A stretch of 56,423 bases of DNA from Fidelibacterota bacterium (GTDB taxonomy: Bacteria; Fidelibacterota; Marinisomatia; Marinisomatales; UBA1611), in contig PBFM01000016.1 of NCBI GenBank assembly GCA_002718655.1, positions 6,013 through 62,435 of the forward strand. Direction: 5' to 3'. The notes beneath the pieces were generated by a model, which had not been told where the DNA came from, ran no database searches, and saw nothing but the letters and a program-made list of their open reading frames with translations. The position numbers and the translations under genes were made by a program. Every line of letters starts with the position of its first letter. The stretch's first letter is position 1. Below, one piece after another: positions 1 to 56,423 of this stretch.

Positions 1-104
1 ACAACAAAAAAGATAACAAGTTTTGGAGGTTTAGGAGCAGATAAAGTACAGCTAACATTAATGAATATTGCTGATAGAAATATAACAAGGAATAGTTTTT
101 TCAT
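1..104 (-). CDS. N-terminus (partial, runs off window) of a probable alkaline phosphatase-superfamily lipoprotein (PafA-like)
   Basis: Not in the ORF track. Manual translation from ATG at 104 (ATGA overlap with the tyrS stop) gives MKKLFLVIFLSAIFINVSCTLSAPKPPKLVIFFVV. This is a signal peptide with a lipobox-like Cys followed by PKLVIFFVV, resembling the PKLVVxIVVDQ start of PafA/NPP-type phosphatases. Confidence 0.6.
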   Translation of the reverse strand, partial: MKKLFLVIFLSAIFINVSCTLSAPKPPKLVIFFV

Positions 105-1309
105 CTGGTCACCTTCAGAAAACGTCTTTTACCAATTTTTAATATTTGATCATCTCCTGGCAATATAGTAGCTTGTAGGTCTTCAACCTTATGATCATCC
201 AATCTTACAGCACCCTGTCTAATCATTCTTCTGGCTTCTCCTTTACTTTTTAAAATACCTGACTCAAAAATTATATGAACTATCAATTCTTCTTTTTCGA
301 TACAAAAAACAGGAATCTCCTCGGGTACACCTTTGCGAACTACGACCTGATTAAAATATTTTTCTGCCTTTTCTGCTAATTTATCATTATGATATATGGA
401 TACTAATTTTCTACCAAGCTCCCGCTTTATATCCATTGGATTAATTTTTTCATCATTTAGCTTTCTTTTAATTGATTTACAATGTGAATAGTCAGCGTCA
501 GCAGCTAAAATAAACCATCTTAAAATCATTTTATCTGAAATGGATAACACCTTGCCGTACATATCCTCAGGAGTATCCGTGATTCCTATGTGGTTTCCCA
601 AAGATTTAGACATTTTTTCTACACCGTCTGTCCCTTCAAGAAGCGGAGTGGTAATTATGCACTGAGGCTCTTGGCCAATGTCTTTTTGTAAATCTCTTCC
701 AACTAAAAGATTGAATTTTTGATCCGTTCCACCAAGCTCAACATCGGCGTTTAATTCTACTGAATCCTGAGCCTGAGCCAAAGGATAAAGAAATTCATGA
801 ATGGATATGGGTATTTCGGATTTAAAGCGCTTTGTAAAATCATCTCTCTCAAGCATCCTAGCAACTGTATATGAGCTAGCTAATTTTACAACATCATTGA
901 AATTCATTTTATTTAGCCAATTTGAATTATATTTAACTATAAGTCTTTTTATATTAAGTATAGCTTTAGCCTGCTCAACATAACTTTTGGCATTGTCTTG
1001 AGCTTCTTGAAGAGTTAACTGTGGCCTTGTTTTGTTTTTTCCAGATGGGTCGCCTATCATTGCAGTAAAGTCACCAATCACCAGTACTGCAGTATGACCA
1101 AGATCTTGAAAATGCCTCAATTTTCTTAGCACAACACTATGCCCAAGATGAAGATCTGGTCTGCTTGGATCACAACCAAGTTTTACAATCAATGGCCTAT
1201 TTTGAGATATAGATCTTTCCAGCTTCGCTATAAGTTGATCTTCAGGAAGAATTTCTTCTACACCCCTTTTTATCAAATCCATTTGTTCATTAACTGGTAA
1301 ATATTTCAT
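101..1309 (-). CDS. tyrS: Tyrosine--tRNA ligase
   Basis: Class I motifs HLGH and KMSKS, GGTDQKFN, YPLAQAQD, and a C-terminal S4-like domain (SKGEARRMIRQGAV...KIGKRRF). Confidence 0.98.
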   Translation of the reverse strand: MKYLPVNEQMDLIKRGVEEILPEDQLIAKLERSISQNRPLIVKLGCDPSRPDLHLGHSVVLRKLRHFQDLGHTAVLVIGDFTAMIGDPSGKNKTRPQLTLQEAQDNAKSYVEQAKAILNIKRLIVKYNSNWLNKMNFNDVVKLASSYTVARMLERDDFTKRFKSEIPISIHEFLYPLAQAQDSVELNADVELGGTDQKFNLLVGRDLQKDIGQEPQCIITTPLLEGTDGVEKMSKSLGNHIGITDTPEDMYGKVLSISDKMILRWFILAADADYSHCKSIKRKLNDEKINPMDIKRELGRKLVSIYHNDKLAEKAEKYFNQVVVRKGVPEEIPVFCIEKEELIVHIIFESGILKSKGEARRMIRQGAVRLDDHKVEDLQATILPGDDQILKIGKRRFLKVTR

Positions 1310-1755
1310 TTATCTTTCATTGCTCTTTGGATGTCTCTTTCAGCATCTCTTTTCTTTTTAGCTGATCTCTTATCATATAATTTTTTTCCTTTTGCAAGAC
1401 CAAATTCTAATTTTATTAGACCGCCTTTAAAATATAGTTTAATTGGAACAGCGGTTAATCCTTTTTCTGCTAATTTTGAATCAATTTTTTGAATCTCTCT
1501 CTTGTGTAGTAGTAATTTCCTATTTCTAACTGGATCATGCCCTATGAAACCAGTATGACTATAAGACGCAATATGTGAACCTTTGAGCCATGCTTCACCC
1601 TTACGGATTAGTACGTATGCTTGTTTTAAACTTGCCTTACCTTCCCTTATGCTTTTTACTTCACTTCCCTTAAGCTTAATCCCAGCTTCAAATTCTTCAA
1701 GAATATGATATTCGTGGAATGCTTTTCGATTAGTTGCAACGACGATGTTTTCCAT
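1306..1755 (-). CDS. smpB: SsrA (tmRNA)-binding protein
   Basis: NRKAFHEY, EAGIKLKGSEVKSIR, RKLLLHKREI, AKGKKLYDKR motifs. Confidence 0.98.
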   Translation of the reverse strand: MENIVVATNRKAFHEYHILEEFEAGIKLKGSEVKSIREGKASLKQAYVLIRKGEAWLKGSHIASYSHTGFIGHDPVRNRKLLLHKREIQKIDSKLAEKGLTAVPIKLYFKGGLIKLEFGLAKGKKLYDKRSAKKKRDAERDIQRAMKDK

Positions 1756-1891
1756 ATAATTAATGTAACTAAAAATACAAGTATGAAAGTTCTGTTAACA
1801 AGTTTAATAATGTATTCCATTTTATTCCCAATAGTATACTTTTTATGATGTATGATACCTACAATTGTTCTATTAAATTTTATTATGTTTT

Positions 1892-1975
1892 GCCCGGGTG
1901 GCAGAATTGGTAGACTCGAGCTACTGAGGTCCGTGTGTTTCAGATGACGTGTTGATTCGATTCCAGTCTTGGGCA
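1892..1975 (+). pseudogene. Degenerate tRNA-Leu(GAG)-like element (probable tRNA pseudogene)
   Basis: Acceptor stem GCCCGGG/CTTGGGC plus discriminator A, Leu-type D-loop GAATTGGTAGA, anticodon loop CTGAGGT (GAG at 1926-1928), long variable arm and T-loop TTCGATT are present. The D stem (GCA/CTC), anticodon stem (AGCTA/CCGTG) and the T-stem closing pair (A.C) are mispaired. No CCA is encoded. Confidence 0.75.
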
Positions 1976-2004
1976 CTTTAATATTCATAAATGTAAGTCA
2001 TAAA

Positions 2005-3099
2005 ATGAAAATTTTACTTATTGAACCTTACTATTCTGGCTCCCATAAGCAATGGGTTGATGGATATTCAAAACATAGTCTCCATGATATAAAGGTTATT
2101 AAAATGAAAGGCCAATTCTGGAAATGGAGGATGCATGGAGGAGCGATAACAGTCGCAAATACCTTTAATAAAATGGACTACAAACCAGATTTGATTCTCA
2201 CATCATCAATGCTAGACTTAACTACTTTTCTATCATTAACAAGAAAAAAGTCTAACGGTATTAAAACTGCAATATATTTCCATGAGAATCAATTAACCTA
2301 TCCATGGTCCCCCTTAGATAGAGATCTTTTAAAAAAAAGAAATTCTCATTATGGATTTATAAATTTTTCATCTGCTCTAGCAGCTGATAAAATATTCTTT
2401 AATTCAAAATTTCATATGAATTCTTTCTTAAAGGCATTAAACCCCTTTTTAAAGCAATTTCCAGATAACAATGAAATAGAATCTATAGAATCAATCAAAG
2501 ATAAATCAGAACTCCTATACCTAGGATTAGATCTTAAACAATTGAAACAGCCTAAGTTTGAAAAACAAAGTTTACCATTATTACTTTGGAATCATAGATG
2601 GGAATATGATAAAAACCCAGAATTGTTTTTTAAGATAATTGGAAAAATAAAAAACCATGGACATCGTTTTAATTTAGCTGTAATTGGAGAGAACTTTAGT
2701 CAAAAGCCTGAGATTTTTGAAAAAGCTAAAAAGACTTTTAATAATGAGATTGTTCAATGGGGATTTCTTGATTCTCTAGATGATTATGCGAAATGGCTAT
2801 GGAAAGCAGATATTTTACCAGTTACATCTAACCAAGAATTTTTTGGTGCTAGTGTCATTGAGGCTATTTACTGCAATACATGGCCAATTTTACCTAATCG
2901 ATTAACATACCCTGAGCTTATTAGCGAAGACTTCCATAATAACATACTATACAATAATGATATTGAACTGTTTAACAAATTGATTTGGGCAATGCAAAAT
3001 AAGAAAAATATTAAGAAATCAAAATTATTTGATTTGGTATCTAGATTTGATTGGGCAGAAATGTCTCAACTTTATGATAGAGTTTTTGAAAATGTATAA
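2005..3099 (+). CDS. DUF3524 / GT-B glycosyltransferase, homolog of GTDC1 (QTMAN, queuosine-tRNA mannosyltransferase)
   Basis: MKILLIEPYYSGSHKQW, WKWRMHG, YFHENQLTYP, FNSKFH, WNHRWEYDKNPE and EFFG..VIEA motifs as in the GTDC1 family. Start moved to ATG 2005 because the ORF-track start lies inside the tRNA-like element. Confidence 0.85.
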   Translation: MKILLIEPYYSGSHKQWVDGYSKHSLHDIKVIKMKGQFWKWRMHGGAITVANTFNKMDYKPDLILTSSMLDLTTFLSLTRKKSNGIKTAIYFHENQLTYPWSPLDRDLLKKRNSHYGFINFSSALAADKIFFNSKFHMNSFLKALNPFLKQFPDNNEIESIESIKDKSELLYLGLDLKQLKQPKFEKQSLPLLLWNHRWEYDKNPELFFKIIGKIKNHGHRFNLAVIGENFSQKPEIFEKAKKTFNNEIVQWGFLDSLDDYAKWLWKADILPVTSNQEFFGASVIEAIYCNTWPILPNRLTYPELISEDFHNNILYNNDIELFNKLIWAMQNKKNIKKSKLFDLVSRFDWAEMSQLYDRVFENV

Positions 3100-3210: not shown

Positions 3211-4989
3211 TCATTTTACTAATATCATTTTTCTTTTTAATAAATACCCATCGAATTTTAATACTGAAAAATATAATCCACTTGTAACCTCATAGCCCAT
3301 ATTGTTCTTCCCATTCCATTTTATCGAGTGATTTCCCTTTGGCCTTATCTCATTAATTAATTGCACTATAACCTTTCCTGAAATATCAATTATGGACACA
3401 TCAACCATTGATTTAAATGGAAGATAAAAAGATATGGAGGATTGTGAATTAAACGGATTGGGATAATTTGGATACAATGATAAGTCCTTTATAAAATGAT
3501 TTTCTTTAGCAACACCAATATTATCATCAATTGAGATATCAAATACTATTGGTAAGTGGTCTGATGCTATGTGAGTATCATACCGTTGAAATCCAAAATA
3601 TTCTAAAGTAGCATCATTCAATTCTAACGTATTTAAAATGTAATAATTACCAGGATTGATAGTGAAGTTAGAATAGAATACATAGTCTAGTTTTCCCGGG
3701 TTGAATGATGAACCATCATTCCTCCATGTATAACCCATACGTTTATGACTATGAAGAGGAAACAACTCTCTAATTGGAGTTGAGTCCCAATCTGGAAAAT
3801 AATCATTACCGAACTCTTCTTGATCCTCAATATCCCCGTCTCTGATAGTTCTTATTTGCTGGCTATATCCAACAAAATTAAAGTCTCCAATGTGAATGAA
3901 AGGAGTCTGTTCCTCTATTTCAAATGGCCCAGAACCTTCTTGCATCCAATCTCTCCAAACTCCAGAAAACTCATCTACTTGTTGCTGCCTGCTTTCATCA
4001 TTATCACAACAAGATAAATGAGAATTAAAAATTAATAAGTTGTGGCCTAACTCATTTACTGTATTTAATAATGCTGCCATAGTTCTTCCAGAGCTTATAA
4101 TATTCGCATCATTTAATATTGGGAATCTGGATAATATAACAAGATCATTATATGTCCAACTTGCATACCATTCTTCATCAGGAAACCAAGACTGAATTAT
4201 TCCATCTATTTGATCCCATTCTCCATGCTCTTGAAGCCCAATAACATCAGGGTTTAGCCCTTGAATGATTCGCTTAAAACGAATTTGTCGCTCGCTATCA
4301 AGGATACCTTCATTCCATGTGTTGTATGAAATTATTCGAATATCTGATTCACTTTCTCTTTCTAAAGAAATTGATGGTGAATCATCAACAAAATTATGAT
4401 CTACCATAAAAGTCACTCCACCAGATTCATTTGGAACAAAATCACCATCATCAGCCATTTCAGATAAGATTAACCTAGCTTGGCTTAAAATTTGACTCCC
4501 GTTTAATGTAAGTGGTGAAGAGTTTAGCGATATTGCAATCTCAAATTCCATGGATGTCACGGTCGGCGCAATTCTGAGTGTGAGATCATTTTGATAAATA
4601 TCATATTCTTGCCCATCTACATGTCCGTATCCCCAACGGTCACCAAACGCCCACACAAGCTCTGCGCCAATACCATTAACAAATTGGCCAGTCGTTGAAT
4701 TATTATCGCTATCAATGTATAAATGAAAATCATTCCAATTCTGCATCAAGAATTCATCATTAAAAAAATTGAAGTAAATGAATAAAAATTGAGAATCATT
4801 CGTAATCTTAAATATTGAATAATCAGCACCAATGTGATCCCCTTCTGCATCATTATAAGCTATGGGAACTTCAATCCAATCATCAAACTGACCATCAATA
4901 TTTATAGGATTACCACAGATTAAAATGGAAATCAAAAAAAAGGGGCTGATAATTAGTTGTTTCAACCCCTTTTGTATTATGCTGTGCAA
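3211..4989 (-). CDS. Secreted endonuclease/exonuclease/phosphatase (EEP) family protein with C-terminal sorting (T9SS-A/FlgD-Ig-like) domain
   Basis: EEP motifs ISYN, GLQE, NSHL, GDFN, LDYVFYS, SDHLP. Hydrophobic N-terminus. C-terminal NYPNPFN...WNGKN...SGLYF...KMILVK. Confidence 0.85.
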   Translation of the reverse strand: MHSIIQKGLKQLIISPFFLISILICGNPINIDGQFDDWIEVPIAYNDAEGDHIGADYSIFKITNDSQFLFIYFNFFNDEFLMQNWNDFHLYIDSDNNSTTGQFVNGIGAELVWAFGDRWGYGHVDGQEYDIYQNDLTLRIAPTVTSMEFEIAISLNSSPLTLNGSQILSQARLILSEMADDGDFVPNESGGVTFMVDHNFVDDSPSISLERESESDIRIISYNTWNEGILDSERQIRFKRIIQGLNPDVIGLQEHGEWDQIDGIIQSWFPDEEWYASWTYNDLVILSRFPILNDANIISSGRTMAALLNTVNELGHNLLIFNSHLSCCDNDESRQQQVDEFSGVWRDWMQEGSGPFEIEEQTPFIHIGDFNFVGYSQQIRTIRDGDIEDQEEFGNDYFPDWDSTPIRELFPLHSHKRMGYTWRNDGSSFNPGKLDYVFYSNFTINPGNYYILNTLELNDATLEYFGFQRYDTHIASDHLPIVFDISIDDNIGVAKENHFIKDLSLYPNYPNPFNSQSSISFYLPFKSMVDVSIIDISGKVIVQLINEIRPKGNHSIKWNGKNNMGYEVTSGLYFSVLKFDGYLLKRKMILVK

Positions 4990-6577: not shown

Positions 6578-9500
6578 ATGAGCATTATTAACATAAAGTC
6601 TAAAGAAAAAAAACCTGCAGCATTATTACTAGTCATGTTCTTTGCCATTGTTTCAATGAGCATAACAGGATCATCAGTCCGTGATACAGCATTCCTTTTA
6701 GAGTATGATAGAACGTTACTTCCAATTATGTATGTTATCATTGCTTTGGTTATGGCGGCAATAATTCCTATTTATAAAAAACTTGTAAAAGGGAAGGACC
6801 ATATTTCAGTAATCAAATTGAGTGGTATATGGTTTGCAATCACAATTACGCTAATAAAACCAAACATGATAGGCTTGCTAATACCAGTATTTTATGTGTG
6901 GATAGAAATTATAACGATTATTTCTATTTTACAGTTTTGGGTATTAGCAGGAGAAATTTTTAACGCTAGGCAAGCTAAAAGACTTTTCCCTATCATCACA
7001 GCGGGTGGTTCATTTTCCGGTATGGGGATAGGTTATATTATAAAACCAATTGCCAAAAATCATGGATATGAAAATCTTTTGATATTAACATTATTTTTCA
7101 TCTTAATTACCATAGCAATCGCTCATATATTGGTATCATATGTCAGAAAAGAAAAATTTTCAGATAGTAATGATAATAGTGGAAGTAAATCCGCAAAAGT
7201 AGACACTTACATAAAATTTATTGCGGGAATGGTTGGCATTTCTGCTTTCATTTCCAAAGTAGTTGATTATCAATTTAAAATAATGGCAGTAAATACATAT
7301 CCTGAACAAGATGCTCTTGTGAGTTTTTTTGGAACGTATTACATGCTTACCGGATTGGCTACATTAATCATGCAGTTTTTTGTTTCTGGAACAATCCTCG
7401 GCAGATTTGGAATTTTAGTCGCTTCACTAGTTTTGCCTATTTCATTGGCATTTGGGTCAATCGGGTTTTTTCTGCTAGGTACCATAACAACTGTTTTTAC
7501 AGCAAAATTCTCAGACCAGGTATTCAAATTCTCCATTAATAATTCTGTTCAGGAAATATTATGGTTACCTGTTGCAAGACAGATGAAACGTCAATCAAAA
7601 CCAATCATCGATGGTACAATACGTTCTGGGATGGAGGGTCTTGCAGGAGTTTTAATCTTTTTGCTAATTAGCACCAGTATAATATCTGAGTCGCAAATAT
7701 ATTCACTAAGCCTCGTCATTATTTTTGCAATTTTCTTATGGATATGGAACAATATGAAATTAAAAGAGGGTTATGTTAAGACACTAATGTCCTCAATTGA
7801 AAACAGGCAATTAAACTTCGATAATGTAAGATTTGATATTAATGATACTGACATAATCAAGACACTAGATAATGCTCTGAAAGATGATGATGAATTGAAA
7901 CAGCTTTTTGCCTTAGACTTACTTAGAAAATTGCCTCTCACTCCATGGAAAAGAACACTTGAAACCCTATTTATTGAAGGAAAAAAATCAGTGAAACTTG
8001 GGGTCATAAAACTTACTTGGAACAAAAAAGATATCATAACAAATGATTTAATCATACAGCAAATCAATGCGGATTCAAAAGTATCTCCAACATTGATTTC
8101 CTGTGCTGCTGATAGGAACATCAATGGAATAAAGAGTATCTTAGTTAATTATCTTAAAAGTTCAAATGTTGATTTAAAATTATCTGCGGCAATTTCACTA
8201 TTTAAAATCGACAGCTCTACTTCGTTAGCAAAAAGTATCATTCATTCAGTATTTGAAAGTGGTAATAAGGAAAATATAACGAAGATGCTAGGCTTTATGC
8301 GAGGTTCAAGTGTCCATTTGTCTGACACAAGAATATTGATGTTATTTAAGTTTTCATCTAATGATATAAAAAATGCCACCTTGAAACTTGTAAAAGAAAA
8401 AAATGGTATAGATCTAATTAATCCTATTATTGACTTATTAATGAATCCAAAAACATTTGAAAATGCAACCATTGCATTAAATCAACTTGATTTAAATGTT
8501 GTATCATCTAAAATAAGGGAGAAAATCAAAGATCCAAAATGTAAAACAGATTTAAAAGTGGGAATATTAAAGTCAACTCACCAATTAAATGATAAAAAAA
8601 ACATAGATCTTTATCTGTTGATGTTAAAAGACCCAGAGTTAATTGTTTTAGATGCTGCCAGTAATGCTTTATTAAAAAAATCAAAAACAATCGCCCTTAA
8701 AACTTTTGAGTTAAAGAAGATTCATAACATAGTTAGTGAAATTGCAGAAAGAGCATATCAACTTTTTCTTTTTAAAGAAAATCTTAATGATAAACAAGGT
8801 ACAAAACTTTTGGTGGATCATATAGAAAGTGATTTAAATATACTCATACCAATTATTTTAAAATTAGGTACCTTAGAAAACCCTGAAATCCCGATTGAAA
8901 CCTATATTCGTTTTCTTCAAAGTAAGGACCCATATTTTATGCCCATGGTGCTTGAATTAGTTGAAACTACATTTTCAAAAAACATAAAAAAAATCACCCT
9001 CCCATTAATTGATCAAGAATTGGACAAAATTAAATTTGGCAAAGAATTTTTCCCAGAAATGTTTAAAACTAAGGATGAAATGCTATTATTTTGGTCAGGC
9101 AGTAAAAATTATTGGAAAACTGGAATAGCAATACACTTCCTCATAAAGGAAAATAAAATTAACATTCTTGATAAAATTAATTGGAAAAACATTCCAAAAT
9201 CAATTTTTGCAAGCAATTTATTTAATTTCGATGAACAACAATATTTGAAACAGTACACAACCAAAAGTAAATTGCTTGAGAAAGAAAACTCAAATATGTA
9301 TTCAATACTCGAAAAAACCCTGATACTCAAATCTGTTGACATGTTCAACTTGATTCCAGGTGATATCCTTAACAAAGTTGCTCAAATTTCAAAAGAATTG
9401 GAATATCAAAAAGGAAGTAAGATATTTAAACAAGGAGATAATGGAGACTCAATGTTTGTCATTATTTCGGGTGGTATTGAAATAAGTCAAAACAGAAAAA

Positions 9501-9727
9501 CAATCACAACCCTTAAAAGTGGTCAATGTATTGGAGAGATGGCACTCTTAGACCAGGAACCGCGATCCGCAGATGCAATTACAATTGAGGATACAATTTT
9601 GTTGGAAATTGATCAAGAAAGTTTTTACGAATTGATGTCCACCAACCAAGAAATCACGAAACAAATAATAAAAATACTAACCAAAAGGTTAAGGGAAACG
9701 AATCAAAAGTTGACTACTTCTTTGTAA
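6578..9727 (+). CDS. NTT/TLC-family nucleotide transporter fused to HEAT-like repeats and a C-terminal cyclic-nucleotide-binding domain
   Basis: About 12 hydrophobic segments in the first ~400 aa with QFW...[18 protein letters not shown] and KPIIDG (NTT-like). A long helical repeat region follows. The C-terminus has [14 protein letters not shown]...[15 protein letters not shown] (cNMP-binding). Confidence 0.88.
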
Positions 9728-44012: not shown

Positions 44013-45920
44013 TTAAACATCATTTGGTTCAATCCAGTCACCATACTGATCAATCAATTGAATTAATGCATCTACAGCCAATTTTTCTTCAATATTCTTT
44101 TTTACAACATTCTGTCCCTTATATAATGATATTAACCCAGATCCAGTACCAACATATCCATAATCTGCATCAGCCATTTCGCCTGGTCCATTAACTATAC
44201 ATCCCATTATTCCAATTTTTATGCCCTTAAGATGGTCAGTGCGTTCTCGTATTTTTGATGTTGTCTCTTGAAGATCAAATAAAGTTCTCCCACAAGATGG
44301 ACATGATATATACTCAGTTTTAGTACTTCTTGTCCGACATGCCTGCAAAATGTTGAAAGAAAGTTCATTCGTGAATCCCTTCTCTAGATATGTAGTAAGC
44401 CAAATCCCATCACCAAACCCATCGATTTGAAGGCCACCAATATCTGTAGAAGAATAAATTAAAATCTCATCCTTTTTAATAGCTTCATAAGTTTTTTTTA
44501 TGATAACAGGATTCTTCAATCCATAGTGAACGAGGTTCATAAAAAATTTTCTTTGCAAGTGGAATCCAGCATTTTCTTTTCCCTCTAATACAATGATACA
44601 ATTTTTTAATTCCCTAATAATATCAAAAGGCTCATCAATATCGTTGCATAAAAGAAAAGATATTTTATCATTATTAATTTTACTTACATTATCCAATGAA
44701 TAGATTGGATAGTATCCATCTTTATTCGAATGGTTTGAGTGGTTTTGTATTATTTGTAAAGTACCAGGAATCTCAAAATTAAGCGAATTGGACCCAATAT
44801 AGAGAAAATCAATTGCCTGTTCGGATATATGCCATTTGTCTTGGACTTTAGCATATAAATAACCAAACTCAGCTAAATCCTCCTTTTTAATGCCATGATG
44901 AGCTGAAAGATCGCCTATAACCCTAGGAACATGTTCTGAACCTACATTTGCAATTGTAGAAGTGCTCCTTCGAGCATAGAAAAAAGAATCATGAGTTGAG
45001 GTGGTGATTGCTTTAACCTCTAATTTAGATTGGTGTAAATTTGCTTTTCTTTTAACTAGAATTCTAGCTACTGGGATTTCCTCTTCTGGAGGTTCAGTAA
45101 GAGAAACTCGAATGGTATCTCCTAGTCCGTCTTCAAGAAGTGTTCCTATTCCAACTGAAGATTTAATACGACCATCTTCAGCCTCTCCCGCCTCAGTAAC
45201 ACCAAGATGCAAAGGATAATTCATACCCTCATTCTTCATCTTAGTAACAAGAAGACGATATGCTTGAACCATTACATGAGTATTACTTGCTTTCATTGAT
45301 AAAATAATATCATGATATGACTCCTCCTCAGCGATACGAACAAATTCCATTGCTGACTCAACCATACCCTCTGGTGTATCTCCATATCTACTAAGAATGC
45401 GGTCTGAAAGAGAGCCATGGTTAGTGCCAATCCGCATAGCAGTACCATTCTCCTTACATACTTTTACCAGAGGCAAAAACCTTTCTCTTATTCTAAATAA
45501 CTCTTCTTCATATCCTTTTTCTGTATATTCGTGATATTCAAACTTTTTTTTATCTGCATAGTTCCCTGGATTAATACGAACTTTCTCAACAATATCAGCA
45601 GCAACAATAGCAGCATTTGGCGTGAAGTGTATATCTGCAACAAGTGGTGTATTGTATCCTTTAGATAATAGTCCATTTTTAATGTTTACTAAATTTTTTG
45701 CTTCCTTAATGCTTGGAGCAGTTATACGAACAATCTCACAGCCTCTATCTATCATTCTAATGGACTGTTCAATTGTCGTCTTAGTATTCATAGTATCAGT
45801 AGTGGTCATCGACTGAATTCTTATAGGATTATCACCACCCACACCAACATTGCCTACTTTAACACAACGTGTTTTCCATCTTATTGGATTAATCAAATTT
45901 TCACAATAAAAATCGGTCAT
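44013..45920 (-). CDS. ispG: (E)-4-hydroxy-3-methylbut-2-enyl-diphosphate synthase (long, three-domain form)
   Basis: IRIQSMT, PLVADIHF, RINPGN, RIGTNHGSL, YPLHLGVTEAG, CPSCGR, MGCIVNGPGE. Confidence 0.97.
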   Translation of the reverse strand: MTDFYCENLINPIRWKTRCVKVGNVGVGGDNPIRIQSMTTTDTMNTKTTIEQSIRMIDRGCEIVRITAPSIKEAKNLVNIKNGLLSKGYNTPLVADIHFTPNAAIVAADIVEKVRINPGNYADKKKFEYHEYTEKGYEEELFRIRERFLPLVKVCKENGTAMRIGTNHGSLSDRILSRYGDTPEGMVESAMEFVRIAEEESYHDIILSMKASNTHVMVQAYRLLVTKMKNEGMNYPLHLGVTEAGEAEDGRIKSSVGIGTLLEDGLGDTIRVSLTEPPEEEIPVARILVKRKANLHQSKLEVKAITTSTHDSFFYARRSTSTIANVGSEHVPRVIGDLSAHHGIKKEDLAEFGYLYAKVQDKWHISEQAIDFLYIGSNSLNFEIPGTLQIIQNHSNHSNKDGYYPIYSLDNVSKINNDKISFLLCNDIDEPFDIIRELKNCIIVLEGKENAGFHLQRKFFMNLVHYGLKNPVIIKKTYEAIKKDEILIYSSTDIGGLQIDGFGDGIWLTTYLEKGFTNELSFNILQACRTRSTKTEYISCPSCGRTLFDLQETTSKIRERTDHLKGIKIGIMGCIVNGPGEMADADYGYVGTGSGLISLYKGQNVVKKNIEEKLAVDALIQLIDQYGDWIEPNDV

Positions 45921-52754: not shown

Positions 52755-55700
52755 TTATTTCATGAGAACAAGTTTCTTGACACTTACAAAATCACCTGCT
52801 TGTATGCGATAGACATACATTCCAGATGAGAGTGCTTGACCTAGGTCATTTGTTGCATTCCAAACGATCTGGTAACGTCCAGGCTGGTGACTACCCTGTA
52901 CTAGGGTTCGTACACGCTGACCCATCACATTATAGATCTCAAGAGTTACATCTGAGACCTCAGGAATATCATATAGGATATTCGTGACAGGGTTGAACGG
53001 ATTCGGATAGTTGTTATGCAGTGCAAATTCCTGTGGAAGTGTTCCACCATCAATACCAACAAGATCAGCATCAACAGTTACAACAAGTTCACGAGGTCCA
53101 CTTGATGATGGTGTCATCTCAAAACCATCAGATGTCCACACATCCCATGTCCAGGTCATCTCTTCAAGGCCTAGATCAATTGCAGCACTTGCAATATCTT
53201 CATGGGTTACGAAAACACCTGTAGCTGTAAGAGGTACATGCATGTAAACCTCATCAGCAAAGACGTGTCCACCTTCAGTTCCACCTGCTTCAGCTGGCAT
53301 CCTCATGACACCAACCATGACTTGTGTTGCACCTTCTGGTACATGACATTCTGCATAGATATAATTCCATACATCTGCTGAATCGGCACTAGTCATTGGC
53401 TCTCCAAGCTGGAATTCCATGGTGTTGCCATCAGCATCCATGAAAGCTGCACCTACAGCTAACATTCCATCATTGATAGGATCTGCTGAGGAGTGCATTG
53501 CCCAACTATCTACCCAAAAATGGGTACCAGCTGGTAGCATGTCAACAGGCCATTGTTGGTAAACAGCATTTAATCCGCCTGCAGAACTCACAGCCATTGC
53601 TAGGGCAGCATCACCATCAGCTGCTTCAAACAGTACACCATCAGCTATTTCATCACCGGTGTTGATTACAGCATAATCATCTCCATTTGATTCCCAACCT
53701 TCAAGACCACCATCTGCATCGAGGTCCTCAAAGCTTTCATTTTCAACCGCGTTTTCAGGCAATATCTGATAAAGAGTATCACCAGGAACTGCAGCCTCAA
53801 ACTCTACATAGTATTCAACTGGGTCGTTATCTGCATCTATTGCAGCGGTCCAAATGAATGCGACCTCTTCATCAAGATTATCTGCTGTTACAGCAACCTC
53901 AAATCCATCACCTGGAGAGATTAACATTGATGCATCTGGAGGCACGTTAGAAAGCGTAACCGTAACTGTATTGGTTGCCATACTTTCATGACCATCAGAA
54001 TACTCTGCTGTGACGTGATACTCATACGTACCCCAATCCAGTCCGTTATCCCAGTAGTCATGCATGTCATGCTCTTGCATTCCTACATGTGCACCATCAC
54101 GATATATGTTATAGTGCATTAGATCTCGAGAAGCAGACTCATGAGCCCATTTCGGATCAACTACAGGAGGATTCATCAAGACAGATGGATTGTCCTTCGT
54201 GTTAACTGCTTCCATTGAAGCGATCGGAGCTGGTAGATCTACAGCGCTTGATGCACCTGATTGATTTATCCATACACCATCATTACCAAATGATGCTACA
54301 TCTCCTCCAGCTGTGAAGTCAGCGAACATGTGAAGAATCCAATCACCACAAGCTAAACTACCATAATCAGCGGATAGTGCCCATGTTTCAGCAACTGATA
54401 CATTGTAATCGTATTTGTTACCTGGGAAATCAAGAACAGCATCACATCCCATCATGTCCATGTCGGCACCTGGTGCATTATTCTCAAAGTCATATCCAAA
54501 ATCACTATACATGACGAAAACATCGCCAGTAACAGTAACTGGAACGGTTGAGAGACTGTCTGTCATTGCCCAACCATAGGTTTCAGAGGTAGGATCAGCA
54601 TCTACTAAAACAGCCTCTTGATACAATGTATCGCCAGGAAGATCAGTATCTGAATCTACTGCTAAAAGACTAAGAGTATATGGTTGTTCTCCAAGAACAG
54701 CATCAGGCCATCCACCAGTCCATACAGAGTTAGCAAGTCCATTAATGGAATATGTGCCATTAACTCTGAAACGAACGGCTACTGCACCTGCATACCACCA
54801 AGCGTTGGCAACTACGCCATCATCGTAGGCAAGCTCCATGTTACTTGCGTCAATCGGTGGATCCCACATTAGATGCACGTCATCGCCATAATCCATTGCT
54901 GTTAGGTTATTTGGATTATCTTCAATCTGAACTGTTACTGTAACAGGTCCAACAACATCAGAAACCACTGGATCAAAGATACCAGGGATATTATAGGTTG
55001 CGGTTATCGCAAGGCTAATGTCAGTTGGCTCTGCAGCAAAAAGAACAGTGGCCCATTCCGTAGCATCTGCGGCAGCCTGTCCAATTGGGCTAGGTGTGCC
55101 AGCTGCGTCAACAGACCAGACAGTATATCCAGCTAGAGGGTTATATGGAGTTAGGTCAATGGTGTATTCACCTTCACCTGCGCCATAACCATCCATGACA
55201 ATGTAGTATGTATTACCTGCTGCCATGTAAACACCTTCAATATAAGATGTCCAAATGGTACAATCATCCACTCCTGGCGGATAGGCATCATCACTACAAG
55301 CATCTGCACCAGTAACTGTGGTAGCTAGATTATCTGCTGCATTCTCGAAAACATAGATTTTCGTATCATATGTTGAATAACAAGTAGTTATGTTAACTGC
55401 TACATCTGTAGTAGGAGTAAAACTATAGACAACATCTGGTGCTGTAGCTCCAGCATATGGACACACGGCATCATAATCATCCGTATATCCAGACGTTGTT
55501 CCAGTTAGCTGCTCCAACTCAGTTATGACAGTAGCATCTTCAATGGTATCTCCACCTTGTCTCGTACTTGAAGGAGTACCATGACCTGTAATAGGTGCAC
55601 CCTCATATGGTTCCGGAGCATCCCATGTCAGGGTTACATCAAATCCTGAGGAAGAACCTACTAGATTTGTTGGCTCTGGAACATCTGGTGGTGCGGAAGG

Positions 55701-56423
55701 GGTAGCACATGCGGTATTTGATGCAGCAGATTCAGTTGTACCATCTACCTGAGTTACCGCATAGCAATATTCCACATCAGCAGTCAGAGGTTCATCTGTG
55801 TAAAGAATCAAGTTACCTGGTTGCCAAGAGGGCGATGATACGTTTTCTATTACAGCAAGATCTGCACCATCAGCTCCACGCCATACGTTCCATGTTGAGT
55901 TTGCCAGAGGACTGGTGTTATCAACACTCATTGACATGACGTTGTTACCTTCACTTTCTTCTAAAACATAATTTCCATATCCATCAGCCATTGCATAAAG
56001 TGTGTATGTTTCGCCATCATAGCCACCTGTAAACCCAGGAAGGGTCAAGTATGAACTAAGATATTGAACAACTGAATCACCAGCAGCAAGTCCAAGGCCT
56101 TGCCACGCATACTGAAAGTATCCTGGCGGATAGGTTTGGGTTGTGTCTGGATCTTGTAAAAATGCCATAGTGTAAAAATATCCAGCATCAAGATCCCCTA
56201 TATTCTTCACCGTAACTGTAGCGCGACCTGTCCAGCTGTCATAGCTCATGTCTGTTACGGTAAGGTCTGGTGCACCACATGCATATCCTTCACCCAAGAA
56301 GAAACATGCAGAAGGAGCAGCACCTTCTCCTAAAACGTTACCATCCATGTCTGTGACCTGCATGGTTTGCTCAGAAAGCCACGGCGCGGTCGCATCCCAC
56401 TCAACAGAATATACTCCGTCAGG
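52755..56423 (-). CDS. Large acidic secreted/surface protein (5'-partial) with CARDB/FN3-like Ig domains and C-terminal sorting domain
   Basis: The frame stays open to the window end (PDGVYSVEWDATAPWLSEQT precedes the ORF-track Met). It contains PDLTV...VKNIG...ESEGNN (CARDB-like), PTNL...VTLTWDAP and YNIYRDG (FN3-like), and NNYPNPFNP...SSGMYVY...KKLVLMK. Confidence 0.88.
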   Translation of the reverse strand, partial: PDGVYSVEWDATAPWLSEQTMQVTDMDGNVLGEGAAPSACFFLGEGYACGAPDLTVTDMSYDSWTGRATVTVKNIGDLDAGYFYTMAFLQDPDTTQTYPPGYFQYAWQGLGLAAGDSVVQYLSSYLTLPGFTGGYDGETYTLYAMADGYGNYVLEESEGNNVMSMSVDNTSPLANSTWNVWRGADGADLAVIENVSSPSWQPGNLILYTDEPLTADVEYCYAVTQVDGTTESAASNTACATPSAPPDVPEPTNLVGSSSGFDVTLTWDAPEPYEGAPITGHGTPSSTRQGGDTIEDATVITELEQLTGTTSGYTDDYDAVCPYAGATAPDVVYSFTPTTDVAVNITTCYSTYDTKIYVFENAADNLATTVTGADACSDDAYPPGVDDCTIWTSYIEGVYMAAGNTYYIVMDGYGAGEGEYTIDLTPYNPLAGYTVWSVDAAGTPSPIGQAAADATEWATVLFAAEPTDISLAITATYNIPGIFDPVVSDVVGPVTVTVQIEDNPNNLTAMDYGDDVHLMWDPPIDASNMELAYDDGVVANAWWYAGAVAVRFRVNGTYSINGLANSVWTGGWPDAVLGEQPYTLSLLAVDSDTDLPGDTLYQEAVLVDADPTSETYGWAMTDSLSTVPVTVTGDVFVMYSDFGYDFENNAPGADMDMMGCDAVLDFPGNKYDYNVSVAETWALSADYGSLACGDWILHMFADFTAGGDVASFGNDGVWINQSGASSAVDLPAPIASMEAVNTKDNPSVLMNPPVVDPKWAHESASRDLMHYNIYRDGAHVGMQEHDMHDYWDNGLDWGTYEYHVTAEYSDGHESMATNTVTVTLSNVPPDASMLISPGDGFEVAVTADNLDEEVAFIWTAAIDADNDPVEYYVEFEAAVPGDTLYQILPENAVENESFEDLDADGGLEGWESNGDDYAVINTGDEIADGVLFEAADGDAALAMAVSSAGGLNAVYQQWPVDMLPAGTHFWVDSWAMHSSADPINDGMLAVGAAFMDADGNTMEFQLGEPMTSADSADVWNYIYAECHVPEGATQVMVGVMRMPAEAGGTEGGHVFADEVYMHVPLTATGVFVTHEDIASAAIDLGLEEMTWTWDVWTSDGFEMTPSSSGPRELVVTVDADLVGIDGGTLPQEFALHNNYPNPFNPVTNILYDIPEVSDVTLEIYNVMGQRVRTLVQGSHQPGRYQIVWNATNDLGQALSSGMYVYRIQAGDFVSVKKLVLMK

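Follow-up and report, generated by a model that had tools for sequence, protein, structure and literature searches.

A QTMAN-family glycosyltransferase gene of a Fidelibacterota bacterium as a candidate for queuosine-tRNA glycosylation

We analysed a 56,423-nucleotide stretch of DNA from a Fidelibacterota bacterium (assembly GCA_002718655.1, contig PBFM01000016.1, positions 6,013 to 62,435 of the forward strand; hereafter the window), near whose beginning lies a glycosyltransferase gene of the QTMAN family (positions 2005 to 3099). The single most likely function of its product is, in our judgement, that of a bacterial queuosine-tRNA glycosyltransferase, a reading to which we give a probability of about 0.5 and which rests on family membership, on motifs shared on the acceptor side, on tight conservation, on the stand-alone and cytoplasmic character of the enzyme and on the fusion of some of its relatives to an RNA methyltransferase domain of the SpoU type. 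The proposal is thus built on homology, and the genomic neighbourhood adds no evidence to it. Sugar-bearing queuosines are, to our knowledge, the only glycosylated tRNA nucleosides known, and it was not until 2023 that the enzymes making them were identified, in vertebrates. Vertebrate QTMAN (GTDC1) is reportedly a tRNA-queuosine alpha-mannosyltransferase, a finding attributed to Zhao et al. in Cell (2023). Our account of the vertebrate enzyme draws on three sources (PMC11755703, PMC12518689 and bioRxiv 10.64898/2026.06.28.735034).

The gene and the two domains of its product are located as follows:

2005..3099, forward strand: intact gene for a QTMAN-family glycosyltransferase (QTMAN_N/DUF3524 plus GT1) of 364 residues, supported by the open reading frame (ORF), Pfam, invariant columns and the AF2 model
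2008..2529, forward strand: N-terminal QTMAN_N domain (residues 2-175), with the motifs GSHKQW, WKWRM, YFHENQLTYPW and FNS, from Pfam
2548..3000, forward strand: C-terminal GT1/GT4-type nucleotide-sugar-binding domain (residues 182-332), with the motifs WNHRWEYDK and EFFGxSxxE, from PF00534

The ORF itself extends over positions 1969-3099 of the forward strand and would encode 376 residues from a TTG start; the methionine encoded at 2005, from which the protein has 364 residues, is the start in all 49 aligned homologues. The protein matches PF12038 (QTMAN_N, formerly named DUF3524) over the complete profile (positions 1-168 of 168, residues 2-175, 4.2e-60, 202.8 bits, with a curated cut-off of 25 bits), and the same profile gives the gene 204.7 bits in a search of the whole genome. 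The second domain is a match to PF00534 (Glycos_transf_1; 2.4e-14, 53.7 bits), accompanied by weak sequence matches to the C-domains of GT4 enzymes in the PDB (e.g. 6eji) and by weak NCBIfam matches to GT4 enzymes, far below threshold. The five DUF3524/GTDC1 signature blocks claimed in a preliminary description of this DNA are all present (GSHKQ at residues 12-16, WKWR at 39-42, YFHENQLTYP at 91-100, HRWEYDK at 197-203 and EFFG at 278-281). The gene is real, and its product is a full-length member of the QTMAN_N/DUF3524 plus GT1 family. Such members are already catalogued in bacteria as 'DUF3524 domain-containing protein' or 'glycosyl transferase family 1', and the window gene is one more of them: relatives in public databases exceed 7,700 among the matches listed (e.g. 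'DUF3524 domain-containing protein [Candidatus Marinimicrobia bacterium]'), and at least 597 stretches of species-representative genomes encode one. Cultured carriers are among these, namely Balneola sp. EhC07, Geomonas paludis Red736, Geothermobacter hydrogeniphilus HR-1, Flavilitoribacter nigricans DSM 23189, Portibacter marinus and Thermohalobacter berrensis CTT3. In viruses, a tblastn search of 50,697 phage records with the protein returned two weak matches, both confined to the C-domain, and a pattern scan of viral contigs for the family returned none.

The AF2 model of the protein (pLDDT 93.4, pTM 0.91) has a GT-B fold, with two Rossmann-like domains separated by a cleft. A Foldseek comparison with the PDB gave at least 500 matches at E<=0.001, the best of them retaining GT-B enzymes of the GT4/GT5 type: GlgM (6tvp), glycogen synthase, BshA (5d00), MshA (3c48/3c4q), sucrose-phosphate synthase (6kih) and tetrahydrobiopterin alpha-glucosyltransferase (5zes, 9v0l), at identities of at most 16% and with TM-scores of 0.61-0.74 (normalised to the query). 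No solved structure of a QTMAN family member was found in the PDB, either by sequence or by fold (again at identities of at most 16%). The sequence has no predicted membrane segment, its 19-residue hydropathy peaking at 0.99, and the model points to a soluble, cytoplasmic, retaining GT-B enzyme of the GT4 type.

Conservation within the family is strong. Fifty bacterial homologues from at least ten phyla (Marinimicrobia, Balneolota, Bacteroidota, Thermodesulfobacteriota, KSB1, Calditrichota, Chloroflexota, Acidobacteriota, Planctomycetota and Bacillota among them), 46-62% identical to the window protein, share 53 invariant columns at a mean column identity of 62%, and the window protein has all 53. 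Most residues of the five motif blocks are invariant in this set, as are W195-K203 and F279-G281, and the invariant positions of the N-terminal half include many aromatic residues or His, Glu and Gln (W17, W39, W41, Y91, H93, E94, Q96, Y99, W101, Y116 and F118). GT4 enzymes of polysaccharide synthesis are usually far less tightly conserved than this, and such unusually tight conservation across phyla would fit a universally conserved macromolecular acceptor. GT4 enzymes bind their donor through basic diphosphate-binding residues and an acidic E..E motif; by analogy, the invariant R198, K203 and F279-G281 probably bind the donor sugar, whereas the N-terminal half is presumed, from the general architecture of GT-B enzymes, to bind the acceptor.

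Eukaryotic relatives were found in a search limited to longer proteins, which gave nine matches. Two cestode proteins (P0128 and P0129) carry the UniRef name tRNA-queuosine alpha-mannosyltransferase and are identical to the bacterial invariants at 36-37 of the 53 positions, a count that is too low for their N-terminal part, which was shortened by the sequence cut and the fixed-length alignment; for two diatom-type proteins (P0125 and P0126) the figure is 35-36 of 53. The residues kept by the eukaryotic relatives include, in the N-domain, W39, R42, Y91, H93, E94, Q96, P100, N133 and S134 and, in the C-domain, the WN.R...DK and FG motifs. With the shared domain pair and the count shared with the cestode proteins, the claim of the preliminary description that this is a bacterial homologue of QTMAN stands. 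Additionally, three diatom-type proteins (P0125, P0126 and P0127, one of them, P0126, from Cylindrotheca closterium) have the enzyme fused to a C-terminal SpoU RNA 2'-O-methyltransferase domain (87-94 bits), a recurrence which suggests a link between the family and RNA modification outside animals. Long bacterial forms (with a peptidase M20 domain, an AAA domain or a long C-terminal extension) were considered as well and set aside, as they are single records that look like gene-call errors or idiosyncratic fusions.

A quick tree built from 55 rows (50 bacterial and 5 eukaryotic) unites the bacterial rows in one tight group (support 89) and places the window protein among those of Marinimicrobia (support 89 and 99). 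Two placements in this tree cross phylum boundaries: the copy of Candidatus Anammoxibacter (L067) nests inside those of Desulfobacterales (support 96-100) and the copy of Thermohalobacter berrensis (L041, Bacillota) adjoins the Marinimicrobia clade (support 95), which suggests horizontal transfer of the gene between phyla.

Taken as a mechanism, the proposal would most likely run as follows. The C-terminal Rossmann half would bind a nucleotide sugar through the invariant R198 and K203 and the EFFG...E motif, and acceptor binding would fall to the family-specific N-terminal half with its many invariant aromatic, His, Glu and Gln residues. In a retaining reaction, one hydroxyl of the cyclopentenediol of queuosine-34 would then receive the sugar, in at least one tRNA with a GUN anticodon, so that the product would be a hexosyl-queuosine, like that of animal QTMAN. 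Queuosine-tRNA as the acceptor, the donor sugar and the target tRNA are all inferred.

Queuosine-tRNA is probably available in the genomes that carry the family. All 69 other carrier genomes examined have tgt or queA, and the genome of the window has queG. The assembly of the window (2.12 Mb in 60 contigs, 34.6% G+C) is 80% complete and gave no match to tgt (PF01702), queA (PF02547) or queH (PF02677), only partial or sub-threshold matches to queC and queF, a queG gene (79.8 bits, in a frame of 315 residues) and the tRNA-Asp(GUC) and tRNA-Asn(GUU) genes. The preliminary description had named a lack of tgt as something that would speak against queuosine glycosylation; formally, the assembly does lack it, and incompleteness is the best explanation, because the assembly has queG and the two other genomes from its taxonomic family carry tgt, queA and queG. 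Since finishing queuosine on tRNA is the only role known for queG (PMC7694415), the part of this genome that is absent from the assembly (20%) most probably contains tgt and queA.

Across the phylum, tgt is present in 142 of 151 genomes (in all 95 of high quality), and QTMAN_N in 14 of the 151, the genome of the window included; the other 13 carriers all have tgt, queA and queG. Among the non-carriers of the same order, queA is found in 13 of 13 and queG in 11 of 13. Of 40 genomes from other phyla, selected as carriers, 38 have tgt, and the remaining two have queA and not queG. In Chloroflexota (201 genomes, including the unpublished G216, G348 and G351), tgt occurs in 178 genomes and QTMAN_N in 16, all 16 with tgt, an outcome whose probability by chance is about 0.14 with no correction for kinship. 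The co-occurrence with tgt and que genes that had been proposed as a check is thus found throughout, but it does not discriminate and counts for nothing as evidence, because the background rate of tgt is too high (89-100%). We also considered whether the family and GluQRS, which decorates queuosine of tRNA-Asp, are mutually exclusive alternatives. With GluQRS (TIGR03838) counted above its cut-off in ORFs of 311-377 residues (a 505-residue match in G007, probably GltX, being set aside), the two genes co-occur in 7 of 35 carriers, and the idea was rejected.

The preliminary description had, moreover, placed weight on the surroundings of the gene, whose relevant features are these:

101..1309, reverse strand: tyrS, a lineage-specific neighbour (TIGR00234, 1.9e-107)
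1306..1755, reverse strand: smpB, a lineage-specific neighbour (PF01668, 4e-59; NF003843, 4.4e-61)
1892..1976, forward strand: decayed tRNA-Leu(CAG) pseudogene, a neighbour without part in the function of the enzyme (alignment to the intact tRNA-Leu(CAG) of related loci)

Both tyrS and smpB are encoded on the minus strand and diverge from the gene for the glycosyltransferase, as had been described, and the whole 56-kb window is free of lipopolysaccharide or capsule genes, which also agrees with the earlier account. The statement that the gene is embedded among tRNA and translation genes holds for the smpB/tyrS side and fails for the other, where a protein of the endonuclease/exonuclease/phosphatase family with a type IX secretion system (T9SS) tail, a leucyl aminopeptidase, a TLC-like/cyclic-nucleotide-binding protein and an acetyl-CoA synthetase are encoded.

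The synteny survey covered the 80 best loci out of the at least 597 that encode a relative in species-representative genomes; their ORFs were called and clustered, and Pfam was run on 136 cluster representatives and flanking singletons. Among the 18 Marinimicrobia loci (five of them labelled as such by ourselves, three of which, L008, L010 and L014, are in the tree and fall inside the clade), smpB adjoins the gene in 11 and tyrS in 9, whereas the 62 loci from other phyla have neither beside it, so that the proposed conservation of synteny with tyrS, smpB and a tRNA gene proved to be lineage-specific. A second glycosyltransferase (GT4) is adjacent in one locus of the 80 (L074), and a tgt or que gene in none; a DegT aminotransferase gene lies downstream in L013 and L009. 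The neighbours change with the lineage: GNAT acetyltransferase, VF530 and AHSA1-like genes in Balneolaceae; SpoIIE phosphatase, OppC permease and alpha/beta hydrolase genes in Saprospiraceae; mreC-mreD-PBP2-rodA upstream and a radical-SAM gene downstream in Geomonas. In three Desulfuromusa-type loci (L032, L056 and L064), the gene is directly upstream of proS, with a trmA-like methyltransferase gene upstream and pyrF and a SpoU methylase gene downstream (and, in L056 and L064, ispG directly upstream), which makes a second, independent case of an adjacent aminoacyl-tRNA synthetase gene, probably due to chance. Other RNA-related neighbours are sporadic, namely a cytidine-deaminase-family gene (L037), a gene for an RNB-domain RNase (L044) and, about 4-5 kb away, a D-Tyr-tRNA deacylase gene (L062 and L078).

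The glycosyltransferase gene thus stands alone, among unrelated housekeeping genes and outside polysaccharide clusters. The association with smpB, tyrS and tRNA-Leu is an inherited Marinimicrobia gene order without functional meaning, and nothing but this phylum-specific order sets the window gene apart from other members of the family.

The tRNA-like gene that had been noted just upstream is, as judged from its alignment with intact copies, a tRNA-Leu(CAG) pseudogene, on its way to being lost from this AT-rich genome. ARAGORN finds no tRNA gene in the window, and Rfam gives nothing there at gathering score and no tRNA match between positions 1700 and 2100 even at E<=10; the predicted fold of 1892-1976 is no more stable than those of shuffled sequences (z = -0.13). 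Its sequence aligns to the tRNA-Leu genes of the same genome, and, in 30 loci scanned, an intact tRNA-Leu(CAG) occupies the same spot, between smpB and the glycosyltransferase gene, in seven (L002, L003, L007, L009, L012, L013 and L026, with copies located e.g. at L002:3815-3899, L003:4428-4512 and L013:4807-4891), while it has been deleted outright in L006, L008, L010 and L011. The window copy has lost the 5' strand of its anticodon stem, reads GAG instead of CAG as its anticodon and has weakened D and T stems, with substitutions in these and in the acceptor stem. A functional tRNA or tmRNA gene at this place was rejected on these grounds, and the tmRNA gene of the genome is on another contig. 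Queuosine is found in tRNAs with GUN anticodons, namely those for Asp, Asn, His and Tyr (according to PMC11755703 and PMC12518689), and the remnant gives no link to queuosine because leucine tRNAs are not among them. In the 80%-complete genome, tRNA-Leu genes with the anticodons CAA, UAG and UAA are present and CAG was not found, and CTG accounts for 59 of 1,551 Leu codons (3.8%) in 34 ORFs of the window; the decay looks like the loss of an isoacceptor during AT-driven genome streamlining. The practical outcome is that what had been taken for a tRNA neighbourhood is an inherited gene order together with a dead tRNA-Leu gene, and the context, with its smpB/tyrS linkage confined to Marinimicrobia, can no longer be used as an argument for tRNA glycosylation.

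Some other features of the window are worth recording in their own right. Two large proteins, encoded on the reverse strand at 3211-4989 and 52755-56363, have type IX secretion sorting tails (Por_Secre_tail), and the first, with its endonuclease/exonuclease/phosphatase domain, is probably a secreted nuclease or phosphatase. The gene at 6578-9727 (forward strand) encodes a membrane protein of 1,049 residues, with an N-terminal part similar to TLC ATP/ADP transporters (6e-12) and a C-terminal cyclic-nucleotide-binding domain (5.5e-22); this protein (cluster c22) recurs downstream in several of the Marinimicrobia loci. At 44013-45920 (reverse strand) lies a long GcpE/IspG gene (635 residues), whose Pfam match falls in two stretches, as in the form of IspG with an inserted domain.

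Several observations weigh against queuosine glycosylation, and many of them favour a different reading, in which fold and family are the same, the bacterial acceptor is not RNA (a protein, or a soluble small molecule, for example a compatible solute, a glucan primer, a thiol precursor, or a pterin or deazapurine that bears a diol) and the tRNA role is a later specialisation of eukaryotes. The nearest solved folds all belong to enzymes acting on small-molecule or glucan acceptors, none of the 80 loci links the gene to que or tgt, and in a 2020 review glycosyl-queuosine is given as absent from bacteria and the enzymes ManQ and GalQ as not found in them (PMC7694415). The family is acidic to neutral (median isoelectric point 5.9, median net charge of the N-domain 0), so that a basic surface, looked for as a sign of RNA binding, was dropped as uninformative, the family not being consistently basic. 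Its distribution is patchy (14 of 151 genomes of the phylum), though queuosine genes are nearly universal there. To this must be added that the window protein has an identity of only 27-30% to the cestode and diatom-type relatives, which owe their own functional assignment to homology only, that the five eukaryotic rows of the tree fall outside the bacterial group on branches of more than 5 changes per column, with a risk of long-branch attraction, and that the queuosine genes of the host give little help, with tgt, queA and full queC and queF matches missing from the assembly, the co-occurrence of tgt uninformative and GluQRS encoded in some of the same carrier genomes. Nevertheless, a non-RNA acceptor does not readily account for acceptor-side N-domain motifs held in common with eukaryotic proteins that UniRef names tRNA-queuosine mannosyltransferases, for the unusually tight conservation across phyla or for the diatom-type fusions to an RNA methyltransferase, and no gene of a small-molecule pathway is consistently adjacent either. 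We regard it as the main rival, with slightly better than one chance in three.

Two further readings appear far less probable. The acceptor might be a 7-deazaguanine nucleic acid other than mature queuosine-34 (an epoxyqueuosine or preQ1 intermediate in tRNA, or 7-deazaguanine in DNA), for which the two TGT-family proteins encoded by some carrier genomes could be adduced; the 80%-complete assembly of the window contains no TGT-family match, however, and preQ1 should, from its chemistry, lack a hydroxyl of the kind used by QTMAN, which makes this reading improbable. Least probable of all, to the point that we give it hardly any credence, is that smpB, tyrS and the tRNA-like gene work together with the glycosyltransferase as a module of tRNA modification or translation. 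Adjacency is seen in the window and in related Marinimicrobia loci (11 for smpB, 9 for tyrS), and the three proS loci, with trmA-like and SpoU genes nearby, have a similar flavour; yet in the 62 loci outside Marinimicrobia smpB and tyrS are never beside the gene, both lie on the opposite strand, the tRNA is a leucine tRNA that is decayed here and deleted in four loci, the tmRNA is encoded on another contig and the neighbours in other lineages are of the GNAT, VF530, SpoIIE, OppC, rodA and alpha/beta hydrolase kinds. The synteny survey has largely refuted this idea.

If queuosine-tRNA glycosylation is the function of the family, its meaning would extend beyond this genome. Many bacteria, with carriers in at least ten phyla, would glycosylate their own queuosine-34 tRNA, and eukaryotic QTMAN would descend from a bacterial enzyme, a wider claim that we hold tentatively, at slightly less than even odds. 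Hexosyl-queuosine would then be a widespread but patchy tRNA modification of bacteria, so far regarded as a feature of animals or eukaryotes, and tRNA glycosylation would be ancient and widespread and could be tested in E. coli or in other simple bacteria in culture. In the ORFs of the window, U is the third base of 76-84% of the codons for Asp, Asn, His and Tyr, and in AT-rich genomes such as this one hexosyl-queuosine could tune the decoding of NAU versus NAC codons.

Our literature search found no study of bacterial QTMAN homologues and none naming DUF3524. With GlgM, BshA, MshA, sucrose-phosphate synthase and tetrahydrobiopterin alpha-glucosyltransferase, the window protein has in common the overall GT-B fold and, as with GT4/GT5 enzymes of this fold in general, the nucleotide-sugar site of the C-domain; it differs from them in the N-domain, where the signature motifs of the QTMAN family have no sequence match in any PDB chain. 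GluQRS (YadB), the bacterial enzyme that decorates queuosine-34 of tRNA-Asp, would act on the same cyclopentenediol if our proposal is right, but it has an unrelated fold and catalyses an aminoacylation, whereas the reaction of the window enzyme would be a glycosylation. Vertebrate QTMAN has the same two-domain architecture (QTMAN_N plus GT1), and the motifs GSHxxW, WxWR, YFHENQxxxP, FNS, WNxRxxxDK, E(F/T)FG and RLxYPE are common to the window protein and the cestode and diatom-type relatives. Human QTMAN has about 458 residues, and the bacterial protein is about 100 residues shorter. The preprint bioRxiv 10.64898/2026.06.28.735034 names K296 as the catalytic lysine of human QTMAN, and K203 of the WNHRWEYDK motif, invariant in the bacterial homologues and in the eukaryotic relatives, is the likely candidate for its equivalent. 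The predicted retaining GT-B fold is, finally, consistent with the alpha linkage of mannosyl-queuosine described in PMC12518689.

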